Origin: Deltaproteobacteria bacterium
Lineage (GTDB): Bacteria > Myxococcota_A > UBA9160 > SZUA-336
DNA length: 64,000 nt
Assembly (NCBI GenBank): GCA_031396695.1
Contig: JANNLG010000171.1
Location: forward strand, 6,053-70,052
Reading direction: 5' to 3'
The notes beneath the pieces are model-generated. The model was not told where the DNA came from, searched no databases, and was given only the letters and a program-made list of their open reading frames with translations. The position numbers and the translations under genes were made by a program. Shown here one piece after another: positions 4,474 to 60,603 of the stretch (the stretch's first letter is position 1; every line of letters starts with the position of its first letter).

Positions 4474-7400
4474 GTGCGCGACACCTCCGATAACTTCGTG
4501 GACATGAGCGCCACGCTGGGGACGGACCCGCCGCTCTGGGAGCGCTACACCCGAACGCACGGCCGCGTGCACCTGACGGGTCTGCAAGCGCTGCTGCGCA
4601 TGACGCTCGACCAGCTGCGCAGCGACGCGCGCGCAGGGCTGCGCACCGGCGCGTTCTTCTCCGGCTATCCGGGTTCTCCGCTCGCGGGGCTGGACGGAAT
4701 GCTGCGCAGCCTGGCGCCGCTGCTCGCGCGCTCGGACGTGCGGCTCGCGCCGGGTCTGAACGAAGAGCTCGCGGCCAGCGCGGTGGCGGGCACGCAGCTC
4801 GTCGAGACCTTCCCGCACGCCCGCTACAACGGCGTGCTCGGGGTCTGGTTCGGCAAGGCGCCCGGTCTCGATCGCGCGATCGACGCGCTGCGCCACGCCA
4901 ATTTCGTGGGCACCGGACGGCAGGGCGGTGCGCTGGCGGTCGTGGGCGACGATCCGTTCTGCAAGAGCTCGTCGCTGCCGAGCCACAGCGAGCACGCCTT
5001 CGCGCACGCCTACATTCCGTTGTTCGCGCCGGCCGACCCGGGCGACGTGCTGCGCCTCGGACGGCTGGCGTTCGCGCTCTCGCGCTACACCGGATTGTGG
5101 AGCGGACTGCGCATGGTGGCCGACGTGGCCGACTCGGGCCGGATCGTCACGCTCGCCGACGCTGAGCCCGCGCTCGTGCTGCCGGAGTTCGTGAATCCGG
5201 CCGGCCGGCCGGCTCGGCGCATCGACACGAATCTGCTGCCGCCGAACGTGCTGCGCATCGAGCAGGATCTGGTCTTCGGCAGACTCGAAGCCGTGCACCG
5301 CTTCGCGCGCGCGAACGGCTTGAATCCGATCACGTCGAAGCACGCGCGCGATCGCGTGGGCCTCGTCGCTTCGGGCTCGCTCTACCGCGAGCTCGAGAGC
5401 GCGCTCGCGCTGCTCGGCCTCGACGAGCCCGAGCGCGAGCGACTCGGCGTGCGGCTGCTCAAGCTCGACCTGGTCTGGCCGCTCGAGACCGAGCGCATGC
5501 GCGAGTTCGCATCCGGACTCGAGGCGATCGTGGTGGTGGACTCGCGCCGTGCCTGGCTCGAGGAGCAGGTGCGCGCGGCGTTGTACGAGGGCGGGTCGCG
5601 CGCGCGCGTGCTCGGCCAGCACGACGAGCGCGGCGCGGCCTGGCTCGCGCGCCGCCACGAGCTCACCGGCGGTACGCTCGCGCAGGATCTCGCGCCCTGG
5701 CTGGGCGAGAAGCTCGGCGAGCCGAAGCTGGTTTCTCGCCTCGCGCCGCTCGAAGCCGCGCTCGCGCGCGCGTCCCACGCGGCCGAACCGTCGCGCGCGC
5801 CGCACTTCTGCAGCGGCTGTCCGCACTCGTCGTCGACCAAGCTGCCCGAGGGCTCGCTCGCCGGCGGCGGCATCGGCTGTCACACCATGGCGCTGCTCAT
5901 GCCCGAGCGCGCAGTGCGGCTGCTCGGCGCGATGGGTTCGGAGGGTGCGCACTGGATCGGTCTCGCGCCCTACACCGAGACGCGACACCTGTTCCAGAAC
6001 CTGGGCGACGGCACCTACTTCCACTCCGGCCGGCTGGCGGTTCGCGCCTGCGTCGAGGCCGGTGCGACGATCACCTTCAAGCTGCTCTGGAACGGAGTCG
6101 TCGCGATGACCGGCGGCCAGCACGCCGTGGGCGCCAAGCCGCTCGCGGCGCTGGTGCGGGATCTGCTGGCCGACGGGGTGCTCTGCGTGGTGGCGATGAG
6201 CGACGACCGCGAGGTCGCCGCGCTCGAAACCTACGAGCCGCGTCTTCGGGTGGTGGACCGGAACGGCTGGGACGGCGCCATGCGCGAGCTGCGCGAGCAG
6301 AGTGGCGTCAGCGTCATGATCTGGGACGAGCTGTGCGCGAACGAGAAGCAGCGGCTCGAACGCCGCGGCGTGCTCGCTCGGCCGAGCGCGCGCGTGGTGA
6401 TCAACGAAGACGTGTGCGAGGGCTGCGGCGACTGCGGCGTCAAGTCTTCGTGCGTGTCGCTGCGGCCGGTCGAGACCGCGCTCGGCCGCAAGACGCGCGT
6501 GCACGCGGGCTCGTGCAGCGACGATCGCGCCTGCCTCGACGGGGACTGCCCGGCGTTCCTCTCGGTCGAGGGTGCGACGGCCGCAGCGCTGCCCTTCGAG
6601 TCCCTGCTGACGGGGCCGCTGCCCGAGCCGCCCGCGCCGATCTGGGACGGCGATCGCTACGAGCTGCAGCTGGTCGGCATCGGCAGCACGGGCGTGGTCA
6701 CGATCGACGCGCTGCTGGTGCGCGCCGCCGAGCACGACGGCTTGTACGCGATGCACCTCGACCAGACCGGCCTCGCGCAGCGCGGCGGCAAGGTCGTGTC
6801 GCACTGCGTGCTCGCGCGCACCGAACTGACGGGCAGCCCGCGCATCGAGCCGGGCCGCGCGGACGTGCTGCTCGCCTTCGATCCGCTCGGCTCCTCGGAT
6901 CGCGACGCACTGCGCGCGCTCGACCCGGGCCGCACGCGCGCGGTGGTGCACGAGCTGTACGTGCCGACCGGCGCCGACGTGGGCGCGCCCGGCTTCCAGC
7001 CGCCCGACCTCTCCTTGCTGATCGAGCCGCTGCGCGAAGCCACGCGCTCGCTCGAGCGCGTTCCCGCGGAGCTGCTCGCGGAAGTCGCGCTCGGCCAGTC
7101 GCTGTCGGCGAATCTGGTGCTGCTCGGCTTCGCCTGGCAGCGCGGACTCGTGCCGGTCTCGCGACTCGCGCTCGAACGCGCGGTGCGAGAGAACGGTGTC
7201 GCGGTCGAGGCCAACCTGCGCGCGATCGCGCTCGGCCGCGCGGCCGCGGTCGACGCGGAGCTGGTCGCGAAGCTCTTGCACGACGCGACTCCGCCGGCGA
7301 TCGGCGACGAGCCGGCGCTCGATCGCGCCGCGCGCGCGCTCGGTCCGGCCTGGAGCGCGGTGCACGAAGCGCTCGGCCGCTTCCAGCACGCGAAGGACTC

Positions 7401-46746: not shown

Positions 46747-48687
<1,941 letters not shown>

Positions 48688-48709
48688 CCACGAGCTGCGA
48701 GTATACGAC

Positions 48710-49813
48710 TCAGGCCGCCGCGGGCGTCTCCGGTAGCGGACCGACGTAGCGCGAGCCGGGCCGGATGATGCGCGAGCTCTGGCGCTGCTCGTCGATGTGC
48801 GCGAGCCAGCCCGCCACGCGCGCGACCGCGAAGGTCGGCGAGAACAGCTCCTGCGGCAGACCGATCGCGTCGAGCAGCACGGCCGTGTAGAACTCGACGT
48901 TCGCGGCCATGCGGCGCTCGGGGCGGCGCTCGCCGAGCGACGCGACGGCGACGCGCTCGACCGCGCGCGCGAGATCGAGCCGATCGCTGCGCAGGCCCGT
49001 CTCGCGCAGGCGCTCGACGGCGCGCTCGAGCACTGCCGCCCGCGGATCGCGCACGCGGTACACGCGGTGGCCCATGCCCATGATGCGCCGGCCCGAAGCC
49101 AGCTCGCCGGTGATCCAGCTCGAGGCGTTCTCGGGCGTGCCGATCGCGTCGAGCATCGCGAGCACCGGCCCGGGCGCGCCGCCGTGGCGCGGCCCCTTCA
49201 GCGCGCCGAGTGCAGCCACCACGGCCGACACCGTGTCGGAGTCGGTCGAAGCGACCACGCGCGCGGTGAACGTGGATGCGTTCATGCCGTGATCGGCGGC
49301 GGTGACCAGGTACGCGTCGAGCGCGCGGCTGCGCGCCGGATCGCTGCCGTGCGCGCTCGCCATGCGCAGGTAGTCGGCGGCGTGACCGAGCGCGGGATCG
49401 GGTGCGATCGGCGCCGAGCCGCGCTGTTTGCGCGCCCACGCCGCCGCGAAGACCGCGACCGAAGCCGTGAGCTCGGCACGCAGCTCGCACTCCGGAATCT
49501 CGCTCGCGCGCAGCTGCGCGAGCGCCCCGCGCACGGCCTCCATGCCGTCGGGCGCATCGAGCGCGCGGCCGAGCGAGCGCAGGCGCGCGAACGCGCGAAC
49601 GCGTGCTCGGCCCAACTCCTCACGCACGTCCTCGTGCGCAATCGGACCGGGCAGCTCGCCGCTCCAGAGCAGCGCGCAGGCCGCCTCGAAATCGGCTCGC
49701 TGCGCGAGCTGCTCCACGTCGTGCCCGCGCACCACCAGGCGGCCGCGCTCGCCGTCGACGTCGGAAAGGCAGGTCTCCGCCACCACCACGCCCTCGAGTC
49801 CATCCATCTGCAT
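48710..49813 (-). CDS. Citrate synthase family protein (citrate synthase / citryl-CoA lyase-like).
   Basis: ATG at 49813 (MQMDGLEGVVVAETCLSDVDGERGRLVVRGHDVEQLA...), ...LVTAADHGMNASTFTARVVASTDSDTVSAVVAALGALKGPRHGGA...GMGHRVYRVRDPRA... are citrate-synthase active-site blocks. The upstream 400 codons of the ORF are junk. Confidence 0.75.
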   Translation of the reverse strand: MQMDGLEGVVVAETCLSDVDGERGRLVVRGHDVEQLAQRADFEAACALLWSGELPGPIAHEDVREELGRARVRAFARLRSLGRALDAPDGMEAVRGALAQLRASEIPECELRAELTASVAVFAAAWARKQRGSAPIAPDPALGHAADYLRMASAHGSDPARSRALDAYLVTAADHGMNASTFTARVVASTDSDTVSAVVAALGALKGPRHGGAPGPVLAMLDAIGTPENASSWITGELASGRRIMGMGHRVYRVRDPRAAVLERAVERLRETGLRSDRLDLARAVERVAVASLGERRPERRMAANVEFYTAVLLDAIGLPQELFSPTFAVARVAGWLAHIDEQRQSSRIIRPGSRYVGPLPETPAAA

Positions 49814-49856
49814 CGCACTTCTCCTTGGACCTCTACCTTGCCGCTGATCCATTACT

Positions 49857-49882
49857 TGATCAACGTTGATCGATCGATCAAG
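49857..49882. promoter_or_regulatory. Composite palindromic operator candidate in a divergent promoter region.
   Basis: TTGATCAACGTTGATCGATCGATCAA contains the self-complementary blocks TTGATCAA and CAACGTTG and a perfect 16-bp palindrome TTGATCGATCGATCAA (49866-49881). There are five GATC sites within about 40 bp, and the GC content is locally low. Confidence 0.45.
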
Positions 49883-49891
49883 ATACGAGCC

Positions 49892-51133
49892 GTGAAGACG
49901 CGAACCGACGCAGCGCTCTGCGCGCGCGAGGCGGCCGAATTCCTGGGCGTGAAGCTCGCGACGCTCTACGCCTACGCGAGCCGCGGCCGCTTGAAGAGTG
50001 TGTCCGGGACGCGCGGCCGCGCGCGGCGCTACGCGCGCGCCGATCTCGAGGCACTGCGCGCGCGCAGCGCCGGACCCGCCGCGGGCGCGCTGCGCTTCGG
50101 CGAGCCGGTGCTCGAGACGCGCATCACCGACATGACTCCGCTCGGGCCGGTCTACCGCGACCGGCTCGCGAGCGAGCTCGCGAGCGCACGCGCTCCCTTC
50201 CCGTCGGTCGCGGAGCTGCTTTGGACCGGCGCCCTGCCCGCGCGCGCGCCGAGCTGGCCCGCCGGCGCGACGATCTGGCCGGCGCGCGAGCTCGCGAAGC
50301 TCGTGCCGCGCGGCAGCCCACCGCTCGGCGCGCTCGCGATCGCGCTGCCGGTGCTCGCGGCGAACGATGCCTCGCGCTTCGACGCGCGACCCGAGGCCGT
50401 GCTCGCGCGCGCGCGCGGCTTGCTGCCGCAGCTCGCGGCCTCGTACGCGCTCGCGCTCGATCCACGCCGGCTCGCACCCGCGCTCGAGGCCGGCGACCCG
50501 GCGCGCGCGCTCGCGATCGCGCTCGGCGCGCCGACCACGAAGCCCGCGCTCGAGCTCCTGAACGTCGCACTCGTGCTGCTCGCCGATCACGAGCTGAACT
50601 CGTCCACGTTCGCGGCGCGCGTGGCGGCCTCGACCGGCGCCGACCTGTACGCGTGTCTCGGCGCCGCGGTCGCCGCGCTCAGCGGACCGCTGCACGGCGG
50701 CGCGAGCGAGCAGGTCGAGATCCTCGCTCGCGAAGCTGCGAACGCCGCCGGCGCGGCCAGCGCCGTGCGCGATCGCATGCGCCGCGGCGAGCGCATTCCC
50801 GGATTCGGTCACTCGCTCTATCCGGATGGCGATCCGCGCGTGCCGCCGCTGCTCGAGGCCGCAAGACGGCTTGCCCCACGCGCGCCGCGCGTGAAGACGA
50901 TCGCGGCGATCCTCCACGCGATGGACGAGGCCGGCCGGCCCAAGCCCAACGTCGACGTGGCGCTCGCCTGCGCCTGCGCTGCGCTCGATCTGCCCCAAGG
51001 CCAGGGCCCGGCGATCTTCGCGATCGGCCGCGCGGCGGGCTGGGTTGCCCACATCCTGGAGCAGTACGAGGCCGGCTTCGTGCTGCGACCGCGCGCCCGT
51101 TGGGCGGGCCCCGCTGGTATGCTGCGCGCGTGA
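49892..51133 (+). CDS. Citrate synthase family protein with an N-terminal helix-turn-helix (MerR/excisionase-like) DNA-binding domain.
   Basis: GTG at 49892: (M)KTRTDAALCAREAAEFLGVKLATLYAYASRGRLKSV... is the HTH_17-like domain, followed by a citrate-synthase-like domain (...LVLLADHELNSSTFAARVAASTGADLYACLGAAVAALSGPLHGGA...GFGHSLYPDGDPR...). Confidence 0.75.
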   Translation: MKTRTDAALCAREAAEFLGVKLATLYAYASRGRLKSVSGTRGRARRYARADLEALRARSAGPAAGALRFGEPVLETRITDMTPLGPVYRDRLASELASARAPFPSVAELLWTGALPARAPSWPAGATIWPARELAKLVPRGSPPLGALAIALPVLAANDASRFDARPEAVLARARGLLPQLAASYALALDPRRLAPALEAGDPARALAIALGAPTTKPALELLNVALVLLADHELNSSTFAARVAASTGADLYACLGAAVAALSGPLHGGASEQVEILAREAANAAGAASAVRDRMRRGERIPGFGHSLYPDGDPRVPPLLEAARRLAPRAPRVKTIAAILHAMDEAGRPKPNVDVALACACAALDLPQGQGPAIFAIGRAAGWVAHILEQYEAGFVLRPRARWAGPAGMLRA

Positions 51134-51245
51134 GCGGCAAGCCCGAGGTCGATGAGCGGATCGGTCCGTCAGTGGTTCGAATGCGGTGCGGCGAGCTCGG
51201 ATCGAAAACCCGCGGCCTTTTGCCGTGACTACCCCGGAGGCGTGA

Positions 51246-52070
51246 ATGTACGAGCAGATCCTCTACTCGGTCGAAGACCCCGTCGCGCTGATCACGCTGA
51301 ATCGGCCGGAGCGACTGAACGCCTGGACCGATCGCATGGGCGACGAGCTGCGCCACGCGATCGCGCGCGCGGAGGCCGACAAGAGCGTGGTCGGCATCGT
51401 GCTCACCGGGGCGGGCCGCGGCTTCTGCGCGGGTGCGGACCTGAAGGGACTGCAGGCGATCACCGTTGGCGAGCGCGAGCGCGGCGGCACCGCTTCGGGA
51501 CTCGCCGCCGACCCCGGCGACACCGAAATGGGTGAGTCGTTCCGCAAGCACTACTCGTACCTGATGTCGGTGCGCAAACCGATCATTGCCGCGATCAACG
51601 GACCGTGCGCCGGCATGGCGATGCCGATCGCGCTGTTCTGCGATCTGCGCTTCGCGGCCGAGAGCGCGACCTTCACGACCGCCTTCGTGCGCCGCGGCCT
51701 GATCGCGGAGTGGGGCCTGGCCTGGACGCTGCCGCGGCTGGTCGGCTCCGCGCACGCGCTCGACCTGTTGCTCTCGGGCCGCAAGATCGATGCGCGCGAA
51801 GCCGAGCGGATCGGGCTCGTGAATCGCGTGCTCTCCGACGAAAAGCTGGTCGCCCACTGCGTCGACTACGTGCGCGAGCTGGCGGCGAACGCCTCGCCGG
51901 CCTCGATGATGGTGATGAAGCGGCAGGTCTACCAGCAGCTCACGAGTGAACTCGGCCCGGCGTGCGACGAGGCCGTGAAGCTGATGGTGGAAAGCTTCTC
52001 GCGACCCGACTTCAAGGAGGGCGTGCAGTCCTTCCTGGAACGGCGACCGCCGAAGTTCCCGCGCGTCTAG
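51246..52070 (+). CDS. Enoyl-CoA hydratase/isomerase (crotonase) family protein.
   Basis: MYEQILYSVEDPVALITLNRPERLNAW...VLTGAGRGFCAGADLKG... is the crotonase oxyanion-hole motif. A GGAGG SD lies 8 nt upstream. Confidence 0.9.
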   Translation: MYEQILYSVEDPVALITLNRPERLNAWTDRMGDELRHAIARAEADKSVVGIVLTGAGRGFCAGADLKGLQAITVGERERGGTASGLAADPGDTEMGESFRKHYSYLMSVRKPIIAAINGPCAGMAMPIALFCDLRFAAESATFTTAFVRRGLIAEWGLAWTLPRLVGSAHALDLLLSGRKIDAREAERIGLVNRVLSDEKLVAHCVDYVRELAANASPASMMVMKRQVYQQLTSELGPACDEAVKLMVESFSRPDFKEGVQSFLERRPPKFPRV

Positions 52071-52080
52071 AGGAGTCCGC

Positions 52081-53535
52081 ATGGTCGGGTGGCTCTGGCT
52101 CGCTCCGTTCATCCTCGCCTTCACACCGACGGCGATCTGGCTGTACCAGCGCGGCACGCAATCGGCGTTCAGCGAGGTGCACACGCTGTTCATGCCGCTC
52201 GTGCTCGCGTACCTGATTCGCGAGCAGCTGAAGCTCGATCCGGACCCGACCCCGCGCTCGTCAGCACTGGGCTTCCTGTTCGTCGTGCCCGCGCTGGCGC
52301 TGGTCGCGCTCGACGCGGCGATGCACACGCAGATGCTGGGCGCGATCGCGCTGGTGATTGCGCTGCCGGGGATCTCGCTGCTCCTGCTCGGCACGCGCCG
52401 CACGCGCGAGCTCGCGTTCCCGCTCGCGCTGGCCGTGTTCATCGTGCCGATTCCCACGGGCATGCTGACGCCGCTCTACAGCGTGCTGCGGCCGATCGCC
52501 GCGATCGGCACGACCTGGCTGGTGCCGCTGTTCGGCATGCCGATCGCGCGCGTCGGCACGGCGCTCTCGGTGCCGGGACTCGCGGTCGAGGTCGCGGACA
52601 ACTGCTCCGGCTGGTCGTCGCTGCAGGCCGCGGTGATCACGGCGCTGGTGCTCGCGCACTTCTCGAGCTCGAAACAGCGGAGGCTCGCGCTACTGCTCTC
52701 CGCCATCCCGGTCGCGATCGTCTGCAACATCCTGCGCGTGACCGCGCTCGTGTTGCTGGCGCAACGCTACGGCGCCGAGCTGCTCGACACCACGCTGCAT
52801 CCCGCGTCGGGCGTGATCCTGTTCGGTGTCGTGATCGCGGTGCTGTTCGCGATCGCGGGACCCGACGCCATGCGCTCGGCCAAGGCTTCGGGCCAGCGCG
52901 TCGTCGTCGCGACGCGCTACGCGCTGGCGCTCGCGGCGCTCTGCGCGCTCGCGCTGATCCCGGTCGGCATGCACTCGACCGCGCGCCTGCGCGGCGACGA
53001 CTGCGCGAACGCCGCCGCGCTCGTGCCCTCGGACGGAAGCGTCGATCCCGCCCGCGCGCTGTTGATGCAGCAGCAGTACAAGGCCTCGCAGTGGCGCGAG
53101 GGTACGCTGCCGGCAACCGCGGACACGCCGGCGCTTCGCTACGCCGTGATTCGCAACTACGAACCGAGGCTGCTCTACTACCGCGGCTCGCGCCGGCTCT
53201 GGCAGGACGTCGAGCCTGGCGCCGACACCATCGAGTGGCTGGAGTCCGACGACGGCCGGCTGCCGATCGTGCGCTCGCAGCTCGCGGGCGATCGGCCGGG
53301 GCAGCCGCGCGCGGTGATCGCGTCGCTGCTCGTCTACGAGGGCGAGCCCGTCGAAACCGGCTGGCGCGCGCAGCTCCGCGCGGCGCCGCGCCAGATGTTC
53401 ACGGGCAGTCGCCCGATGACCTTGTTCACGGTACGGGGTGACGTGCAGGGCGGCGATCACGCGGCGGTGGAAAAGCGCGCGCACGCGTACCTGCTCGATT
53501 CGTGGCGAACCTACCGGGCTCTGTGCCGGCACTGA
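52081..53535 (+). CDS. Exosortase (Xrt) family transpeptidase fused to a C-terminal EpsI-like domain.
   Basis: Eight TM helices with the exosortase catalytic Cys and Arg motifs (...VEVADNCSGWSSL...CNILRVTAL...), then a soluble C-terminal domain resembling EpsI (...SDGSVDPARALLMQQQYKASQWREGTLPAT...IASLLVYEGEPVETGWRAQL...). Confidence 0.75.
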   Translation: MVGWLWLAPFILAFTPTAIWLYQRGTQSAFSEVHTLFMPLVLAYLIREQLKLDPDPTPRSSALGFLFVVPALALVALDAAMHTQMLGAIALVIALPGISLLLLGTRRTRELAFPLALAVFIVPIPTGMLTPLYSVLRPIAAIGTTWLVPLFGMPIARVGTALSVPGLAVEVADNCSGWSSLQAAVITALVLAHFSSSKQRRLALLLSAIPVAIVCNILRVTALVLLAQRYGAELLDTTLHPASGVILFGVVIAVLFAIAGPDAMRSAKASGQRVVVATRYALALAALCALALIPVGMHSTARLRGDDCANAAALVPSDGSVDPARALLMQQQYKASQWREGTLPATADTPALRYAVIRNYEPRLLYYRGSRRLWQDVEPGADTIEWLESDDGRLPIVRSQLAGDRPGQPRAVIASLLVYEGEPVETGWRAQLRAAPRQMFTGSRPMTLFTVRGDVQGGDHAAVEKRAHAYLLDSWRTYRALCRH

Positions 53536-55769
53536 GCACACGCACCGCGTTCCGAACCTGCCCGATCTGCGAGGCGAGCTGTGGACTCGCGCTCTCGCTC
53601 GAGGGCGAGCGCGTGCTGCGTGTGCGCGGAGACGAGCGCGACGTCACCAGCCGCGGCTACCTGTGCCCGAAGGGCGCCGCGCTCGGCGAGCTGCACCACG
53701 ACCCCGACCGGCTGCGCACACCGCTCGTGCGCGGGCCCGAGGGTCTGCGCGCGGCGAGCTGGGACGAGGCGTTCGCGGAGATCGAGCGGCGCCTGCAGCC
53801 GGTGATCGAGCGACACGGCCGCGGATCGGTCGCCGTCTACGTCGGCAATCCCACCGCGCACGACTACTCGCTCTACGCCTATCTGCCCGCGCTGCTGCTG
53901 GCGGCCGGCACGCACCAGCTCTACACGGCGGGCACGGTCGACCAGCAGCCGAAGCAGGTCGCGGTGAACTGCATGTTCGGCACGGCCTGGGGCATTCCCG
54001 TGCCGGACGTCGACCGCACGCAGTATCTGCTCGTGCTGGGCGCGAACCCGGCGGCTTCAAACGGGAGCCTGCTGGTCGCGCCGGATCTACAGGGCCGGCT
54101 CGACGCGATCCGCGCGCGCGGCGGGCGCGTGGTGGTGGTCGATCCGCGCCGCACGAAGACCGCCGAACGCGCCGATGAATGGCTGCCGATCCGACCTGGC
54201 ACCGACGCGCTGTTCCTGTTCGCGCTGGTGAACACGCTGTTCGCGGAGGGGCGCGTCGCACTCGGCGCGCTCGGCGCGCACGTGAACGGAGTCGAGCGGC
54301 TGCGCGAGCTCGCGGCGGAGTTCACGCCGGAATCGGTCGAGGCGCGTTGCCGGATTCCCGCAACCACGATTCGCAGGATCGCGCGCGAGCTGGCGAGCGC
54401 CGAGCGCGCCGCCGTGTACGGCCGCGTCGGCACCTGCACGCAGGAGTTCGGCACGCTCGCGAGTTGGGGGATCGACGCGCTGAACGTGCTCACCGGAAAC
54501 CTCGATCGCGTCGGCGGCGTGATGTGGAGCCGGCCGCTGGCCGGCGGCGACCACACGCGCGGCGCGAAGGGGCGCGGACCGGAGTTCCAGGTCGGCCGCT
54601 TCCGCACGCGCGTGCGCGGGGCGCCCGAGGTTCTGTTCCAGCTGCCCGCCGCCTGCCTCGCCGAAGAGATCGACACCCCCGGCGAGGGACAGATCCGCGC
54701 GCTCGTGGTGATCGCCGGAAATCCCGCACTCTCGGTGCCCGACGGCGAGCGGCTCGACCGCGCGCTGGCGCAGCTCGACTGTCTGGTCTCGCTCGACCTG
54801 TTCGTGAACGAGACCGCGCGCCACGCACACGTCGTGCTGCCGTCGCCCTCGCCGCTGCAACAGCCGCACTACGACGCCCTGCTCTATCAGGTCGCCGTGC
54901 GCAACGCCGCACGCTACTCGAAGCCCGTCCTGCCGCTCGACGTCGACGCGCTGCCGGAGTGGCAGATCATGCTGCGCCTGGCCGCGATCTTCGCCGGCCA
55001 GGGCGCGAAGGCGGACGCGAACGCGCTCGACGACGGCTACTTCGCCGCGCGGCTACACGCACAGGTGTCGGACCCGAGCTCGCCGATCCACGGCCGCGAC
55101 CCGGGCGAGCTGGTCGCGCTCGCCGCCGGACGGCGCGGGCCCGAGCGCATCCTCGACCTCGAACTGCGCACCGGTCCCTACGGAGACGGCTTCGGCGCCG
55201 TGCCGGGCGGGCTCTCGCTCGCGGAGCTCGAGCGCCACCCGCACGGGCTCGATCTCGGTCCGCTCGAGCCTGCGCTGCCGGACGTGCTGCGCACGCCGAG
55301 CGGCAAGATCGAGCTCGCGCATCCATACCTGGCCGCCGACCTGCCGCGGCTGCGCGAGCGCCTGTCGCGTCCTGACGACGACGGGCTGCTGCTGATCGGC
55401 CGGCGCGACCTGCGCTCGAACAACTCGTGGCTGCACAACGCGCCGTCGCTGATGACCGGTCGCGAGCGCTGCACGCTGGTCGTGCACCCCGCCGACGCCG
55501 CCGAGCGCGGCCTCGGCGGCGGCGATCTCGCGCAGATCCGTTCCGCGGCTGCGACGCTGGTGGTCGCGGTAGAGGTCAGCGACGAGGTCGCGCGCGGCGT
55601 CGTGTGCTTGCCGCACGGCTTCGGACACGGCCGGGCGGGCGCGCGTCTCACGGTCGCCGCACGCCGACCCGGCGTGAACTCGAACGCGCTCTCGGATGCC
55701 CGCGCGCTCGACGCGCCGTCGGGAACCGCGGTCGTGAACGGCATCCCGGTCGAGGTCGCACGCGCCTGA
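53502..55769 (+). CDS. Molybdopterin (bis-MGD) oxidoreductase family protein with an N-terminal 4Fe-4S motif. An alternative GTG start at 53523 is possible. The first 34 nt overlap the exosortase gene.
   Basis: ...RTCPICEASCGLALSLEGERVLRVRGDERDVTSRGYLCPKG... is a C-x2-C-x3-C...C cluster, followed by molybdopterin oxidoreductase domains and a C-terminal molybdopterin dinucleotide-binding domain. It has no in-frame TGA. Confidence 0.85.
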   Translation: MANLPGSVPALSTRTAFRTCPICEASCGLALSLEGERVLRVRGDERDVTSRGYLCPKGAALGELHHDPDRLRTPLVRGPEGLRAASWDEAFAEIERRLQPVIERHGRGSVAVYVGNPTAHDYSLYAYLPALLLAAGTHQLYTAGTVDQQPKQVAVNCMFGTAWGIPVPDVDRTQYLLVLGANPAASNGSLLVAPDLQGRLDAIRARGGRVVVVDPRRTKTAERADEWLPIRPGTDALFLFALVNTLFAEGRVALGALGAHVNGVERLRELAAEFTPESVEARCRIPATTIRRIARELASAERAAVYGRVGTCTQEFGTLASWGIDALNVLTGNLDRVGGVMWSRPLAGGDHTRGAKGRGPEFQVGRFRTRVRGAPEVLFQLPAACLAEEIDTPGEGQIRALVVIAGNPALSVPDGERLDRALAQLDCLVSLDLFVNETARHAHVVLPSPSPLQQPHYDALLYQVAVRNAARYSKPVLPLDVDALPEWQIMLRLAAIFAGQGAKADANALDDGYFAARLHAQVSDPSSPIHGRDPGELVALAAGRRGPERILDLELRTGPYGDGFGAVPGGLSLAELERHPHGLDLGPLEPALPDVLRTPSGKIELAHPYLAADLPRLRERLSRPDDDGLLLIGRRDLRSNNSWLHNAPSLMTGRERCTLVVHPADAAERGLGGGDLAQIRSAAATLVVAVEVSDEVARGVVCLPHGFGHGRAGARLTVAARRPGVNSNALSDARALDAPSGTAVVNGIPVEVARA

Positions 55770-56680: not shown

Positions 56681-58645
56681 ATGAGCTCGACCGAACTCAC
56701 CCCGAACGATTCGGGGACGGACCTCGACCTGTGGGGTCAACTGCGCGTGGTGCGGCGCTGCCTGCCGCTCCTGCGCGGCGTGCGCCGACACCTCGTGGTG
56801 TTGCTTCTCTCGATGGCCGCGCTCGCGCTCGTCGGCTTCGCGAGCTTCCTGGTCTACGCGCCCGCGCTCTGGAACGGCGCGTTGCAGGGCCAGCCGATCT
56901 CGGAGCTCGCCGCGCGCGCGGTCGGCATGGCGCCCGAGCGGGTCGCGCACGTGGAGGCGCTTGACGCTCCGCTGCGCCGCGCGCTCGCGGAGCGCCTCAC
57001 CTGGATGCTCGCCGGACTCAGCGTCTCGATCGCCGCGGGGATCATGGCGGTCGGCTACTACGGCATCTGGATCCTGCAGCGCGTGAACCAATCGCTGCGG
57101 CTGCAGCTGGTCGATCGCCTGCAGACGCTCTCGCTGCGCTTCCACGATCAGAGCCGCGTGGGCGACGCGATCTACCGCACCTATCAGGACAGCGCGATGG
57201 TCACGCAGGTCGTCCAGTCGTACATCATCGCGCCGATCGCCGGCGCCACGCAGGCGGTCACGCTGACGCTCGTGCTGGTCGCGTTCTCGCCCGCGCTCGC
57301 GCTGGCGCTCGCCGCGACCTGGCTGCCGCTGCTCGCGCTCGGGCTGTGGTTCTCGAAGCGCCTGCGCGCGCGCTTCCGCGTCGCACGCGAGACCAACAGC
57401 GGGCTGACCTCGCGGATCCAGGAGAGCCTCGCCGGAGTGCGCGTGATCAAGGCGTACGGGCTCGAGGGCTTCGAGCAGGCGCGCTTCGAGAGCGCCTCGC
57501 ACGCCGCGTTCGCGGGGGCGCGCGCGGCCCGCAGCCAGCTCGCGACTTTCGGCGTGCTCGTGTTCTGGGTGATCGGCGCGTCGACGCTCGCGGCCAGCGT
57601 GCTCGCCACGCTCGCGACGCGCGCCGAGTCGCCGCTCTGGATCGCGAGCCTGGTGGCTTCGCGCGGGCCGGAGTTCGCGCAGGCCTGGCTCGCGAGCGCG
57701 GGCATCGGCCTGTGGACGCTCGGCCTGTACAACGCCTGGAAAGGCATGTTCGCGTCGGGCGCAGGCAGCATCGTCGGGATCTTCCGCACCTGGGGCCGCG
57801 CGCAGGACATCGCCGTCGGGCTCGATCGCGTGTTCGAGCTGCTCGATACCGAGCCCGAGGTGCAGGACGCGCCGGATGCGATCGCGCTCGCGCCGCTGCG
57901 CGATCGGATCGCGTTCAAGGACGTGAGCTTCGCGTACCAGACGGAGCGGCCGGCACTGGTCGGTGTCAGCTTCGAAGCCAGAATCAGCGCGATCACCGCG
58001 CTGGTCGGTCCGACCGGCTCCGGCAAGAGCTCGCTGATGGCGCTCCTGCTGCGGCTCTACGATCCCGACTCGGGCAGCATCGAGTTCGACGGCGTCGACC
58101 TGCGCCGGCTGCGCGTTGCCGACCTGCGCGGAGCGATCGCGATCGCGCTGCAGGAGAACGTGCTGTTCGCCGCCAGCGTGCGCGAGAACATCCGCTACGC
58201 GGTGCCCGACGCGGACGATGCCGCAGTGCGCGAGGCCGCGCGTGTCGCCTGCGCCGACGAATTCATCACCGCGCTCCCGCAGGGCTACGACAGCATGCTC
58301 GGCGAGCGTGGCGCGAAGCTCTCGACGGGCCAGCGGCAGCGCATCACGATCGCGCGCGCGATCCTGAAGAACTCGGCCATCCTCGTGCTCGACGAGCCCA
58401 CGGCTTCGCTCGACGCCGAGACCGAGCACCGCCTGGTGCGCAATCTCGCCGCTTGGGGCGCGGGCCGCTGCGTCTTCCTGATCACCCATCGACTTTCGAC
58501 GATTCGCATGGCGGATCAGATCGTCTACCTCGACGCGGGCCGGATCGTCGAGTCCGGGCAGCACGACGCGCTGATGGCGCGAAGCGACGGCGCCTACCGC
58601 GCCTTGGTCGAGACCGAGCGCATCGACTCGCGAGTCGCGCCGTGA
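56681..58645 (+). CDS. ABC transporter ATP-binding/permease protein (type I exporter, MsbA-like), subunit 1.
   Basis: ATG at 56681 (MSSTELTPNDSG...), six TM helices, Walker A GPTGSGKSS, the signature LSTGQRQRITIAR and Walker B ILVLDEPT. Confidence 0.85.
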   Translation: MSSTELTPNDSGTDLDLWGQLRVVRRCLPLLRGVRRHLVVLLLSMAALALVGFASFLVYAPALWNGALQGQPISELAARAVGMAPERVAHVEALDAPLRRALAERLTWMLAGLSVSIAAGIMAVGYYGIWILQRVNQSLRLQLVDRLQTLSLRFHDQSRVGDAIYRTYQDSAMVTQVVQSYIIAPIAGATQAVTLTLVLVAFSPALALALAATWLPLLALGLWFSKRLRARFRVARETNSGLTSRIQESLAGVRVIKAYGLEGFEQARFESASHAAFAGARAARSQLATFGVLVFWVIGASTLAASVLATLATRAESPLWIASLVASRGPEFAQAWLASAGIGLWTLGLYNAWKGMFASGAGSIVGIFRTWGRAQDIAVGLDRVFELLDTEPEVQDAPDAIALAPLRDRIAFKDVSFAYQTERPALVGVSFEARISAITALVGPTGSGKSSLMALLLRLYDPDSGSIEFDGVDLRRLRVADLRGAIAIALQENVLFAASVRENIRYAVPDADDAAVREAARVACADEFITALPQGYDSMLGERGAKLSTGQRQRITIARAILKNSAILVLDEPTASLDAETEHRLVRNLAAWGAGRCVFLITHRLSTIRMADQIVYLDAGRIVESGQHDALMARSDGAYRALVETERIDSRVAP

Positions 58646-60603
58646 GCGGACCCGTCGAGCCGGTCGCGCGCTCTTCGGTCGAAACGCTGGCGAGCTTCGC
58701 GCGCGCGCTGCGCTACGCCGCGCCGCTGCGCGGACGCTTCGCGGCGAAGATCGGACTCACGGCGCTCTCGCTCGTGCCGATGCTGGTCCTGCCCGTGCCG
58801 ATCAAGCTGTTGATCGATCACGTGATCGGAGATCTCTCGATCGCCGATCGGATCCACTCGTATCCCATGCTCGCCCGGCCGTTCGTGCGCCTGCTCGAGC
58901 ACGCCGACTACACGGAGATCCTCGCCTGGACGATCGGCGCGCAGGCGCTGCTCCTGATCCTGATCGGGCAGATCGGCTCCGACGGCGGCGAGCGCGACCG
59001 CACCGACGCCTGGCTCGCGTCGGGCGTCGACGCCGCGACCGCGACCGAGAACGCGGCGAACGCGGGCTTCAGCTTCGCGGGCGGACTGTTCGGGCTGTTC
59101 GATTTCCGCTGGACGCTGCGGCTCACGCAGGACCTGAACCACCACTACCGAGCGAGGCTCTTCGAGCGCATCCAGAGTCTGCCGCTGCATCTGTTCGACG
59201 ACGCGCGCATCGGCGACGCGGTCTACCGCCTGATGTACGACACGCCGGCCATCACGCAGACTTGCTACCGGATCATCCTGGTGCCGACGCTCGTGCCGTT
59301 CGCGATCGCGGCCTACGCGTTCACGATCTGGGACAGCTTCGGCCAGTCGCGGCTCGCGCTGGCGGCGATCGCGTTCGCGCCGCTCGCGTTCATCGCGACG
59401 TGGCCGTTCGCGCGGCTCGTGCGCCGACAGGGCGGGCGCAGCCGCGCGGCCGGGTCCGTGTCCACGACCTCGCTCGAGGAAGGCGTCGCGAACATCTTGG
59501 CGGTGCAGACGCAGGGCGGCGAGGGCCGCGAACGCGCGCGCTTCGATCGCGACAGCGCGCGCTCGTTCGCGCAACACCGCGGCGTGATGGCGCTCGGGAT
59601 GATCGCGATCCTGGTCGCTTTCGTGCCCGGCATCGCGCTGCTGCGCTGGGTGTTTCTCGAGATCGTGGAATTGGTGATCTCGGGCGCGATCAGCCTGGGC
59701 GACTTCTCTGTGCTCTTCACCTATTTCATCCAGATCGGCGTCTTCGCGGTGATGTTCGGATCGCTCTGGTTCACGCTGCAGACTTCGGCGCCGGGCCTGG
59801 AGCGCGTGTTCTTCCTGATGGATCTCGAGCCCGAGCGCGACCCCCCCGGCGCGCGCGAGCTGCCACGCGCCACGCGCAGCCTGGCGTTCGAGGACGTCGA
59901 CTTCGCCTGGCCCGACGGCACGCCCGCGCTGCGCGGCGTGTCGTTCGAGGCGACACTCGGTCGCGTCACCGCGATCGTCGGCCCGGCGGGCGCGGGCAAG
60001 ACCACGCTGATCTACCACGTGCCGCGTTTCCTGCAGCCGACGCGCGGCCGGGTTCGCGTCGACGGCGTCGATCTCGCCGGCGTCACGCGCGATTCGCTGC
60101 GCGCGCAGATCGCGTTCATCTTCCAGGAGAGCGCGCTCTTCGACGGAACGATCGAGGAGAACCTGCGGCTCGCGAACCCGAACGCCTCCGAGCTCGAGCT
60201 GCGCCGCGCTGTGCAGATCTCCGGCGCGGACGAATTCGTGCGCCGTCTACCCGATGGCCTCGCGACGCGGCTCGGCCGCGCAGGCGCCGGGCTTTCGGTC
60301 GGCCAGAAGCAGCGCCTCGCGATCGCGCGAGGCCTGCTGCGAGACGCGCCCATCCTGATCCTGGACGAGCCGACCTCCGCGCTCGATCCCGACACCGAAC
60401 GGCGTCTGCTCGCGAGCTTGCGCGAAGCCGCGCGCGAGCGCATCGTGCTGGTGGTCGCGCACCGGCTCTCGACCGTGCGCGCAGCCGACCAGATCCTGTT
60501 CCTGCGCGACGGCGCGATCGTCGAGCGCGGCACCCACGACGAGCTGATCGCCATCCCCGGAGGCGCCTACCGCCGCTACGCGGAACTGCAGTCCGCTGGC
60601 TGA
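58642..60603 (+). CDS. ABC transporter ATP-binding/permease protein (type I exporter), subunit 2.
   Basis: GTG at 58642 overlaps the previous stop (GTGA). TM domain, then Walker A GPAGAGKTT, the signature LSVGQKQRLAIAR and Walker B ILILDEPT. It is probably the heterodimer partner of the preceding gene. Confidence 0.85.
   Translation: MSGPVEPVARSSVETLASFARALRYAAPLRGRFAAKIGLTALSLVPMLVLPVPIKLLIDHVIGDLSIADRIHSYPMLARPFVRLLEHADYTEILAWTIGAQALLLILIGQIGSDGGERDRTDAWLASGVDAATATENAANAGFSFAGGLFGLFDFRWTLRLTQDLNHHYRARLFERIQSLPLHLFDDARIGDAVYRLMYDTPAITQTCYRIILVPTLVPFAIAAYAFTIWDSFGQSRLALAAIAFAPLAFIATWPFARLVRRQGGRSRAAGSVSTTSLEEGVANILAVQTQGGEGRERARFDRDSARSFAQHRGVMALGMIAILVAFVPGIALLRWVFLEIVELVISGAISLGDFSVLFTYFIQIGVFAVMFGSLWFTLQTSAPGLERVFFLMDLEPERDPPGARELPRATRSLAFEDVDFAWPDGTPALRGVSFEATLGRVTAIVGPAGAGKTTLIYHVPRFLQPTRGRVRVDGVDLAGVTRDSLRAQIAFIFQESALFDGTIEENLRLANPNASELELRRAVQISGADEFVRRLPDGLATRLGRAGAGLSVGQKQRLAIARGLLRDAPILILDEPTSALDPDTERRLLASLREAARERIVLVVAHRLSTVRAADQILFLRDGAIVERGTHDELIAIPGGAYRRYAELQSAG

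Follow-up and report, generated by a model that had tools for sequence, protein, structure and literature searches.

A predicted family of metabolite-sensing regulators with a MerR/Xis-type helix-turn-helix fused to a citrate synthase fold, encoded divergently from CitA-type citrate synthases

In the MocR/GabR regulators a GntR-type winged helix-turn-helix (HTH) is joined to a full fold-type-I aminotransferase domain, and Bacillus subtilis GabR controls the divergent gabT gene. B. subtilis also codes for a minor Glu-type citrate synthase (CS), CitA, whose gene is divergent from that of the LysR regulator CitR, and Salmonella PrpR, a sigma-54-type regulator, senses 2-methylcitrate. Other regulators of methylcitrate operons are PrpR of Mycobacterium tuberculosis (PMC6765138) and PmiR of Pseudomonas aeruginosa (PMC9728974), and Xanthomonas citri PrpR binds GTTGCAA-N2-TTGCAAC (PMC12153269). 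Here we analyze a 64,000-nucleotide stretch of DNA from a Deltaproteobacteria bacterium (the window; contig JANNLG010000171.1, positions 6,053 to 70,052 of the forward strand), in which a CitA-type CS gene is divergent from a gene coding for an HTH fused to a CS fold. Sequence comparisons suggest that the fusion very probably represents a widespread, unstudied family of metabolite-sensing regulators built from an enzyme. We consider it likely that it acts as a one-component regulator, with the HTH binding a composite operator in the shared spacer and the CS fold sensing a ligand, and that it controls both itself and the CS gene.

The CS gene occupies positions 48710 to 49813 on the minus strand and codes for a 367-residue protein (Pfam PF00285 and NCBIfam NF009005); an AGGAG Shine-Dalgarno sequence lies 8 nt 5' of its ATG, and the protein starts MQMDGLEGVVV. 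The fusion gene, at positions 49892 to 51133 on the plus strand, codes for 413 residues and starts with GTG, a start that is backed by an ATG at the identical position in the relatives L081 (79% identical) and L082 (89% identical; loci in our survey carry L numbers). An earlier note on this DNA, made from the sequence alone, had described a divergent CS-family pair across a 78-bp, AT-richer spacer, and this description is accurate: the spacer (49814 to 49891) has a GC content of 0.50, against 0.71 for the window as a whole. The two CS-fold proteins are merely 34% identical and are therefore old paralogues. A scan of positions 48000 to 52500 with Rfam gives no match.

The fusion shares with MocR/GabR an N-terminal winged HTH, a flexible linker, a complete enzyme fold with a pocket, and (as predicted here) a dimeric state, as well as a gene divergent from a paralogous enzyme gene, with a predicted operator in the shared spacer and predicted autoregulation. 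It differs in its HTH, which is MerR/Xis-like (HTH_17) rather than GntR-type, in its all-alpha CS fold without a cofactor, and in its ligand chemistry. The N-terminal fold also matches MerR and BldC proteins (BldC 6ama, MtaN 1r8d, and SoxR 2zhg; TM 0.6 to 0.7), and the dyad of the predicted operator would fall within a putative -35/-10 interval, as in MerR systems. In contrast to MerR proteins, however, the fusion has no coiled-coil helix or small C-terminal pocket, but a linker and then the CS fold after residue 58, and the spacer of its putative promoter would measure 17 bp, compared with 19 to 20 bp at typical MerR promoters. With the prp regulators it has in common the divergent-regulator position upstream of prpB-prpC-acnD at 12 Xanthomonadales loci, although the architectures are unrelated, the fusion site there is TTGAT-N7-ATCAA, and the predicted target in the window is a CitA-type CS and not a prp operon. 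X. citri PrpR was considered as a possible member of the fusion family and rejected, as it is a different protein with a different palindrome (PMC12153269). The minor CitA-type CS (NVEFY) beside a divergent dedicated regulator recalls citA-citR, but CitR is LysR-type and not a CS-fold fusion. The principle of setting an HTH on an enzyme fold is thus known from MocR/GabR, whereas this family brings a new fold, HTH class, operator, and set of targets. A search of the full-text literature, the coverage of which does not extend to the study of proteobacterial prp regulators by Suvorova et al. (2012), found no description of an HTH-CS fusion family. We also found no curated family for the fusion, and a PDB sequence search gave no solved structure with this architecture.

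The fusion protein has an HTH_17 domain at residues 12 to 57 (1.1e-9; 38.8 bits, with the cutoff at 27) and a Citrate_synt domain (PF00285) at residues 70 to 401 (2.7e-68), both from Pfam. Its AlphaFold2 whole-protein model (pLDDT 83, pTM 0.78) has a strand-helix-helix-hairpin-helix arrangement at residues 9 to 58, with the final helix at 49 to 58, a disordered linker of about 15 residues at 62 to 74, and then the CS fold. When modeled in isolation (pLDDT 74), the N-terminal domain has its best Foldseek matches to BldC, mycobacteriophage Pukovnik Xis, RacA, MtaN, and SoxR, with NmlR, CueR, and RdfS also among them; the TM values are 0.6 to 0.7 at a root mean square deviation of about 2 Å, and the E-values are weak, which is to be expected of a domain of 50 residues. 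The MerR_1 and MerR profiles match weakly and under their cutoffs (2.6e-4 and 3.3e-4), and there is a weak match to the TIGR01764 'excise' profile. Foldseek aligns the CS part with citrate and 2-methylcitrate synthase structures at TMt values of 0.74 to 0.80, and the closest PDB sequence matches are 2-methylcitrate synthases (3tqg at 1.3e-36), with all 22 of the 22 NCBIfam CS/PrpC equivalog models under cutoff (the best is TIGR01800, 190 bits versus 421).

According to these models, the N-terminal domain is a MerR/Xis-type winged HTH (residues 9 to 58; positions 49916 to 50065, plus strand; HTH_17, AlphaFold2, and Foldseek) joined to a complete CS fold, the predicted effector domain (residues 70 to 401; positions 50099 to 51094, plus strand; Pfam, residues, and Foldseek). 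The proposal that the plus-strand protein begins with a MerR/excisionase-like HTH fused to an enzyme fold is thus borne out by Pfam, AlphaFold2, and Foldseek alike, including the folding of the N-terminal domain as a winged HTH similar to known DNA-binding domains. The model lacks both the long coiled-coil dimerization helix and the small C-terminal effector region of MerR proteins, and the fusion is therefore not a canonical MerR-family member. The recognition helix, TLYAYASRG (residues 24 to 32), is nearly invariant as TLYAY(A/V)SRG across 77 diverse fusion orthologues, the set that is used for all residue counts below. In one Burkholderiales metagenome-assembled genome (MAG; L040, 6001 to 7851) the fusion open reading frame (ORF) extends to 616 residues with a C-terminal MarR-type HTH at residues 490 to 548; it represents a triple fusion (HTH_17-CS-MarR) or, alternatively, two genes that run together in the absence of a stop codon.

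The perfect 16-bp palindrome reported earlier in the spacer is present at positions 49866 to 49881 (TTGATCGATCGATCAA), and corresponds to a core dyad TTGAT-N6-ATCAA in which N6 is CGATCG. Adjacent to it, TTGATCAA (49856 to 49863) carries a third half-site, ATCAA (49859 to 49863), two nucleotides from the dyad, and the predicted composite operator therefore reads TTGATCAA-CG-TTGATCGATCGATCAA (49856 to 49881, plus strand). It lies 10 nt from the fusion start codon on the right and 42 nt from that of CS on the left. Statistics from the window alone are weak, with one match to TTGAT-N6-ATCAA (one mismatch or fewer) versus 0.17 expected, and at least one match in 15 of 100 shuffles; the significance of the dyad comes from cross-species conservation.

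We surveyed fusion genes with one genome per species, finding at least 587 species-level loci and examining 80 of them (81 in some counts). A shared site, (A/G)TCAA-N2-TTGAT-N6-ATCAA(Y)aT with either N6 or N7, is found upstream of fusion genes across phyla (e.g., TTGATCAACGTTGATTCGACAATCAACAT in L020, TTGTCAATATTGATTTAATAATCAATATATC in L054, and TTGATCAATCTTGATTCAACCAATCAA, with N7, in L063), and about 60 of 81 loci have an exact TTGAT-N5-8-ATCAA dyad. The N6 dyad with one mismatch or fewer occurs within the 280 bp upstream of the fusion gene at 41 of 81 loci and only 37 more times in the remaining ~0.9 Mb, an enrichment of about 46-fold. Alignment of 39 N6 sites gives the consensus T.[AG]TCAAyn-TTGATt-N4-aATCAAy, whose four central bases are unconstrained. 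Although the TCAA at -6 to -3 played no part in selecting the sites, 38 to 39 of these 39 have it, and the orientation of the site relative to the fusion gene is fixed across loci. Perfect palindromes account for 10 of the 39; L082 has the same N6 palindrome as the window, and L081 has TTGATTGATCGATCAA. The window's N6 is itself palindromic, hence the perfect 16-bp palindrome, which is a local accident of the non-conserved N6. What orthologous intergenic regions conserve across phyla is the oriented site, and its linkage to the fusion gene makes the operator of an enzyme-derived regulator, as first suggested from the window sequence, the best reading of the spacer.

When the two genes are apart, the site goes with the predicted target promoter. 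Where the CS and fusion genes are separated or co-directional, the dyad lies 57 to 205 bp upstream of CS and not beside the fusion gene, as in five Sorangium genomes, L032, the Chloroflexota loci L041, L043, and L078, and also L015 and L059; at two co-directional loci the dyad is upstream of the CS-fusion pair. Changes in the site also accompany a change in the protein. A27T is the sole recurrent substitution in the recognition helix (L006, L009, L013, L014, and L017), and among fusions with A27 there are 53 loci with TTGAT dyads and one with a TCGAT-containing dyad, versus none and four, respectively, among those with T27 (TCGAT...ATCGA). Three of these loci, from Myxococcus and Citreicoccus (L006, L009, and L017, ~5950 to 5990), have fusions without an adjacent CS gene and the site variant TCAATC-TCGAT-N6-ATCGA near the projected fusion start. 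When public metagenome contigs were scanned with the motif alone (TTGATCAAYNTTGATNNNNNNATCAA), an HTH-CS gene was found 8 to 125 bp downstream in the correct orientation in 33 of 80 loci, 22 of which have a divergent CS gene too; because the fusion gene family is rare, this recovery represents a very large enrichment. A Polyangia MAG (L025, 5650 to 5760) has five tandem dyads with a 21-bp period between the CS and fusion genes, each reading TTGAT-N6-ATCAAC and followed by ATAC, ATAG, or GTAG, an array that suggests cooperative or higher-order binding in some lineages.

The minus-strand CS matches its families (PF00285 at 1.9e-106; NF009005, PRK12350, 392.9 bits versus a cutoff of 332) and has H175, N178, H210, H249, R258, and R351, with Glu307 (NVEFY) replacing the canonical catalytic Asp. 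Its best PDB match, B. subtilis citrate synthase 1 (2c6x, 9.6e-79), likewise has NVEFY. A CitA-type CS gene adjoins the fusion gene in 52 of the 80 loci (50 divergent, and two co-directional and just upstream), coding for proteins 43 to 67% identical to the window's partner, and Glu is found at the catalytic-Asp position in all 51 of 51 complete CitA-type partners, as against Asp in 10 of 10 PrpC-type partners. Judged from these sequences, the fusion family is specifically associated with the Glu-type 'second' citrate synthases, which are of poorly defined physiological role.

The family is broadly distributed. A protein search gives thousands of relatives, HTH_17 and Citrate_synt are both present in 116 of the top 120, and the top relatives are from Myxococcota and Burkholderiales, down to 56% identity. 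The loci examined span Myxococcota (Sorangium, Myxococcus, and Nannocystis), Xanthomonadales, Burkholderiales, Chloroflexota, Acidobacteriota, Gemmatimonadota, Rhizobiales, and Actinomycetota. At the 12 Xanthomonadales loci the fusion gene adjoins the prpB-prpC-acnD methylcitrate operon rather than a CitA-type CS gene; in Stenotrophomonas (L063), prpB is divergent from the fusion gene and followed by prpC and acnD (NF008455, NF009006, and TIGR02333 at 521, 723, and 1783 bits), with the N7 form of the site in the prpB-fusion spacer. A Burkholderiales subclade (L037, L040, L052, L056, and L077) has no CS neighbor and instead a gene for a TctC tripartite tricarboxylate receptor, which in L040 is divergent from the fusion gene with a dyad in between. 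The theme that emerges for the predicted regulator across lineages is the metabolism or uptake of citrate, 2-methylcitrate, and tricarboxylates, and not C4 or acyl-CoA chemistry. In the Chloroflexota loci L041, L043, and L078 (~4950 to 5990), an inserted gene for a pyridoxal phosphate-dependent enzyme (Pfam PALP) separates the operator from the fusion gene; this gene, which presumably shares a transcript with the regulator, may belong to the regulon as well.

The residues of the CS fold suggest what the regulator may sense. The window fusion keeps H233, N236, H268, H307, R316, D355, R399, and R401, all of them invariant or at least 90% conserved in alignment A1, so the catalytic histidines and aspartate that the earlier note had proposed to check (H268, H307, and D355) are retained. 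Among the 77 orthologues the counts are 75 for H233, 70 for N236, 72 for H268, 70 for H307, 77 for R316, and 71 for D355 (plus five with Glu), and both R399 and R401 are present in 77 of 77; 61 of the 77 keep the full set (HNHHRDRR). We derived the correspondence with the pig heart enzyme from motif spacing: H233 and N236 (ADHELN) presumably correspond to pig H238 and N242, H268 (GPLH) to H274, H307 (GFGH) to H320, R316 (GDPR) to R329, D355 (NVD) to D375, and R399 (LRP) to R401. By this mapping, H233, N236, R316, and R399 match residues that bind oxaloacetate in the enzyme. Loss of H268 and D355 (H268V/I and D355E) coincides exactly with the Burkholderiales subclade linked to TctC, which keeps all the arginines. 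Four positions past the GFGH histidine, 62 of 77 fusions have Pro, whereas the window's partner CS and the aligned enzymes have R or K; we take the basic residue to be pig R324, a CoA-phosphate contact, and the Pro may point to altered, perhaps weakened, CoA binding in the fusions. Reading the 'GHS' of the fusion, in place of 'GHR', as loss of a key arginine was considered and rejected, as pig CS itself reads GHAVL and the oxaloacetate arginine is that of DPR, which is present. With three carboxylate-binding arginines invariant, carboxylate binding looks universally selected, and catalysis looks dispensable in at least one clade. Together with the possible weakening of CoA binding, these features point to oxaloacetate, citrate, or 2-methylcitrate as the effector class, and the effector is probably a di- or tricarboxylate of the CS reaction.

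These features are consistent with the following mechanism. The HTH of the fusion would bind (A/G)TCAA-N2-TTGAT-N6-ATCAA in the spacer, probably as a dimer whose subunits are joined through the CS-fold domain. CS enzymes are obligate dimers, and dimerization through the CS fold would fit a dyad with half-site centers 11 bp apart. Occupancy of the operator is predicted to control both the fusion and CS genes, most likely by repression, which would be relieved once the pocket binds ligand and the CS fold moves from open to closed. The spacer has putative overlapping divergent core promoters at 49835 to 49884 on both strands, read from the sequence: a candidate promoter for the fusion gene (plus strand) has TTGATC at 49856 to 49861, N17, and CAAGAT at 49879 to 49884, with the GTG 7 nt downstream, which would make the mRNA leaderless or nearly so, and one for CS (minus strand) has TTGATC at 49863 to 49858, N17, and CAAGGT at 49840 to 49835, upstream of the AGGAG and some 20 nt from the ATG. 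The palindromic TTGATCAA would, on this hypothesis, provide overlapping -35 elements for both directions, and the dyad would sit between putative -35 and -10 hexamers 17 bp apart. Bound protein would cover both core promoters, which is why repression is favored; we favor ligand-relieved repression in particular, with the chances about even between it and MerR-like activation. The distance from ATCAA to the start codon is 10 nt in the window and L082 and 12 nt in L081, and we rejected a uniform model of a leaderless mRNA or a fixed -10 element or transcription start site because this spacing varies from 1 to about 20 nt among orthologues.

Several points weigh against this interpretation. A strict sigma-70 and terminator scan of the spacer calls no promoter and no terminator, which does not favor the proposed promoter overlap. 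No exact dyad is present within 1.5 kb at 17 of 71 loci of the A27 type, and 47 of the 80 motif-only matches are away from a fusion gene, some because they are cut by contig ends and the rest presumably by chance. The five T27 loci may reflect one evolutionary event. The full catalytic set in 61 of 77 fusions would fit an active enzyme as well as a pure sensor, and the ligand assignment is built on the mapping of residues to pig CS. More generally, the comparisons show the domain architecture, which residues are kept, how the site is conserved, oriented, and linked to genes, and its covariation with the protein, whereas DNA binding as such, repression as opposed to activation, the identity of the ligand, and the location of the promoters are inferred.

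The retention of catalytic residues bears most directly on the possibility that the fusion is a bifunctional trigger enzyme, an active citrate or methylcitrate synthase that also binds DNA and whose turnover or product-bound closed state sets its affinity. We regard this as unlikely but quite possible, because the catalytic set is kept in most members (in the window fusion and 61 of 77 orthologues), and the fold is nearest to 2-methylcitrate synthases (3tqg, TM ~0.7 to 0.8). However, despite H268V/I and D355E, the TctC-linked subclade retains the HTH, the dyad, and a neighbor related to tricarboxylates, the position +4 from the GFGH histidine is Pro in most fusions, and no NCBIfam CS equivalog matches at cutoff. 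A similarly low probability attaches to the related idea that the CS fold serves as a flux sensor in the form of a working or half-working enzyme, which would condense acyl-CoA with oxaloacetate or bind citrate or methylcitrate tightly, with the open-to-closed domain rotation repositioning two MerR-like HTHs on the three-half-site operator, perhaps together with the Glu-type CitA partner; transcription factors of this family would then be coupled to catalysis. Another possibility is a hetero-oligomeric CS that pairs an Asp-type fusion with a Glu-type partner and that the HTH either tethers or autoregulates, so that co-occurrence of the genes reflects assembly. The active sites of CS enzymes are built across the dimer interface, and the strict pairing of Glu in all CitA-type partners with Asp in fusions speaks for this arrangement, but the window paralogues are just 34% identical, and the fusion and operator are also found beside PrpC-type (Asp) operons, beside TctC, or at loci that lack a CS gene. 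A hetero-oligomer is unnecessary because the fusion occurs without any CS neighbor, and we consider it very improbable.

The regulator reading also has to be set against two explanations of the spacer that do not involve the enzyme fold. The earlier note had drawn attention to a GATC cluster, with possible methylation sensitivity, and five sites are indeed present in 34 bp (49846, 49858, 49868, 49872, and 49876), three of them inside the dyad, as a Dam-type methylation-sensitive switch would have it. GATC is nonetheless common in the window, with 726 sites (one every 88 bp) versus 395 expected, an excess for which codon usage is our preferred explanation; when the window's GATC sites are placed at random, 23% of simulations contain a cluster of five or more. 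An equal cluster, with up to five sites in 34 bp, is present at 58800 to 58854 (58812 to 58854 is equally dense, and the region includes ATCAAGCTGTTGATCGATCA) in an Ile/Asp-rich stretch of a 1085-residue ORF (57346 to 60603, plus strand), showing that coding sequence in this genome gives rise to such clusters. Conservation covers TTGAT and ATCAA, which give GATC only if the next base is C; the base following TTGAT is T in 31 of 39 aligned sites (dyad position 5), most sites read TTGATT...AATCAA, and only two of the 39 have three or more GATC. Methylation sensitivity is therefore unsupported, and we place such a switch among the least likely explanations, a little below the hetero-oligomer. Lower still, to the point of being almost negligible, is the likelihood that the HTH_17 domain belongs to a mobile element as its excisionase or recombination directionality factor, with the repeats as recombination sites. 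The weak HTH_17 and TIGR01764 'excise' matches and the structural matches to Pukovnik Xis and RdfS would be in keeping with such a role, but conserved neighbors include no integrase or mobile-element gene, the cassette is on the chromosome and keeps its synteny with metabolic genes across phyla, which effectively refutes the idea, and the HTH is covalently fused to a 340-residue enzyme fold in a 413-residue protein, whereas excisionases are small, stand-alone proteins encoded beside an integrase.

The genes around the cassette vary. Five close relatives (63 to 89% identical) keep the divergent CS/fusion pair and a spacer of about 80 bp, with flanks that differ and contain nap genes, histidine kinases, or a carboxyltransferase. 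Conservation is confined to the CS pair, and the two genes thus form a self-contained cassette. Clustering of neighbors at 81 loci shows that the next-best cluster after CS is present in 13 and an AMP-binding (acetoacetyl-CoA-synthetase-like) gene in 8. The suggestion that the acetoacetyl-CoA synthetase and crotonase genes on either side of the pair in the window place it in an acyl-CoA or C4 pathway is not supported, and we rejected the inference, which would also draw on the carboxyltransferase, because these flanks are not conserved. In L081 (7239 to 8795) the fusion gene overlaps, at ATGA, a carboxyltransferase gene that precedes an enoyl-CoA hydratase gene, and the window has a 113-bp gap at the corresponding place (51133 to 51246), with the carboxyltransferase gene seemingly lost or moved. 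Downstream of the crotonase gene, the window has genes for an exosortase (EpsH; 52081 to 53535) and a molybdopterin oxidoreductase (53502 to 55769). An exosortase gene likewise follows the enoyl-CoA hydratase gene in L081, a synteny that is lineage-specific and unrelated to the CS cassette.

If the fusion acts as the regulator proposed here, it would represent a large and phylogenetically broad family of transcription factors, with members in at least 587 species-level genomes and a whole CS fold as the sensor. It would also be a second clear case, beside MocR/GabR, of a regulator that arose when an HTH was joined to a duplicated member of the class of enzymes under its control. The family would come supplied with an operator consensus and with predicted targets, namely CitA-type CS, the methylcitrate operon, and TctC transporters. 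The 'second' Glu-type citrate synthases would gain a function as specifically regulated enzymes, and the missing regulator of the prp operon would be identified in Stenotrophomonas, Pseudoxanthomonas, and Luteimonas. Such proteins would also be a natural scaffold for biosensors of citrate, 2-methylcitrate, or oxaloacetate.

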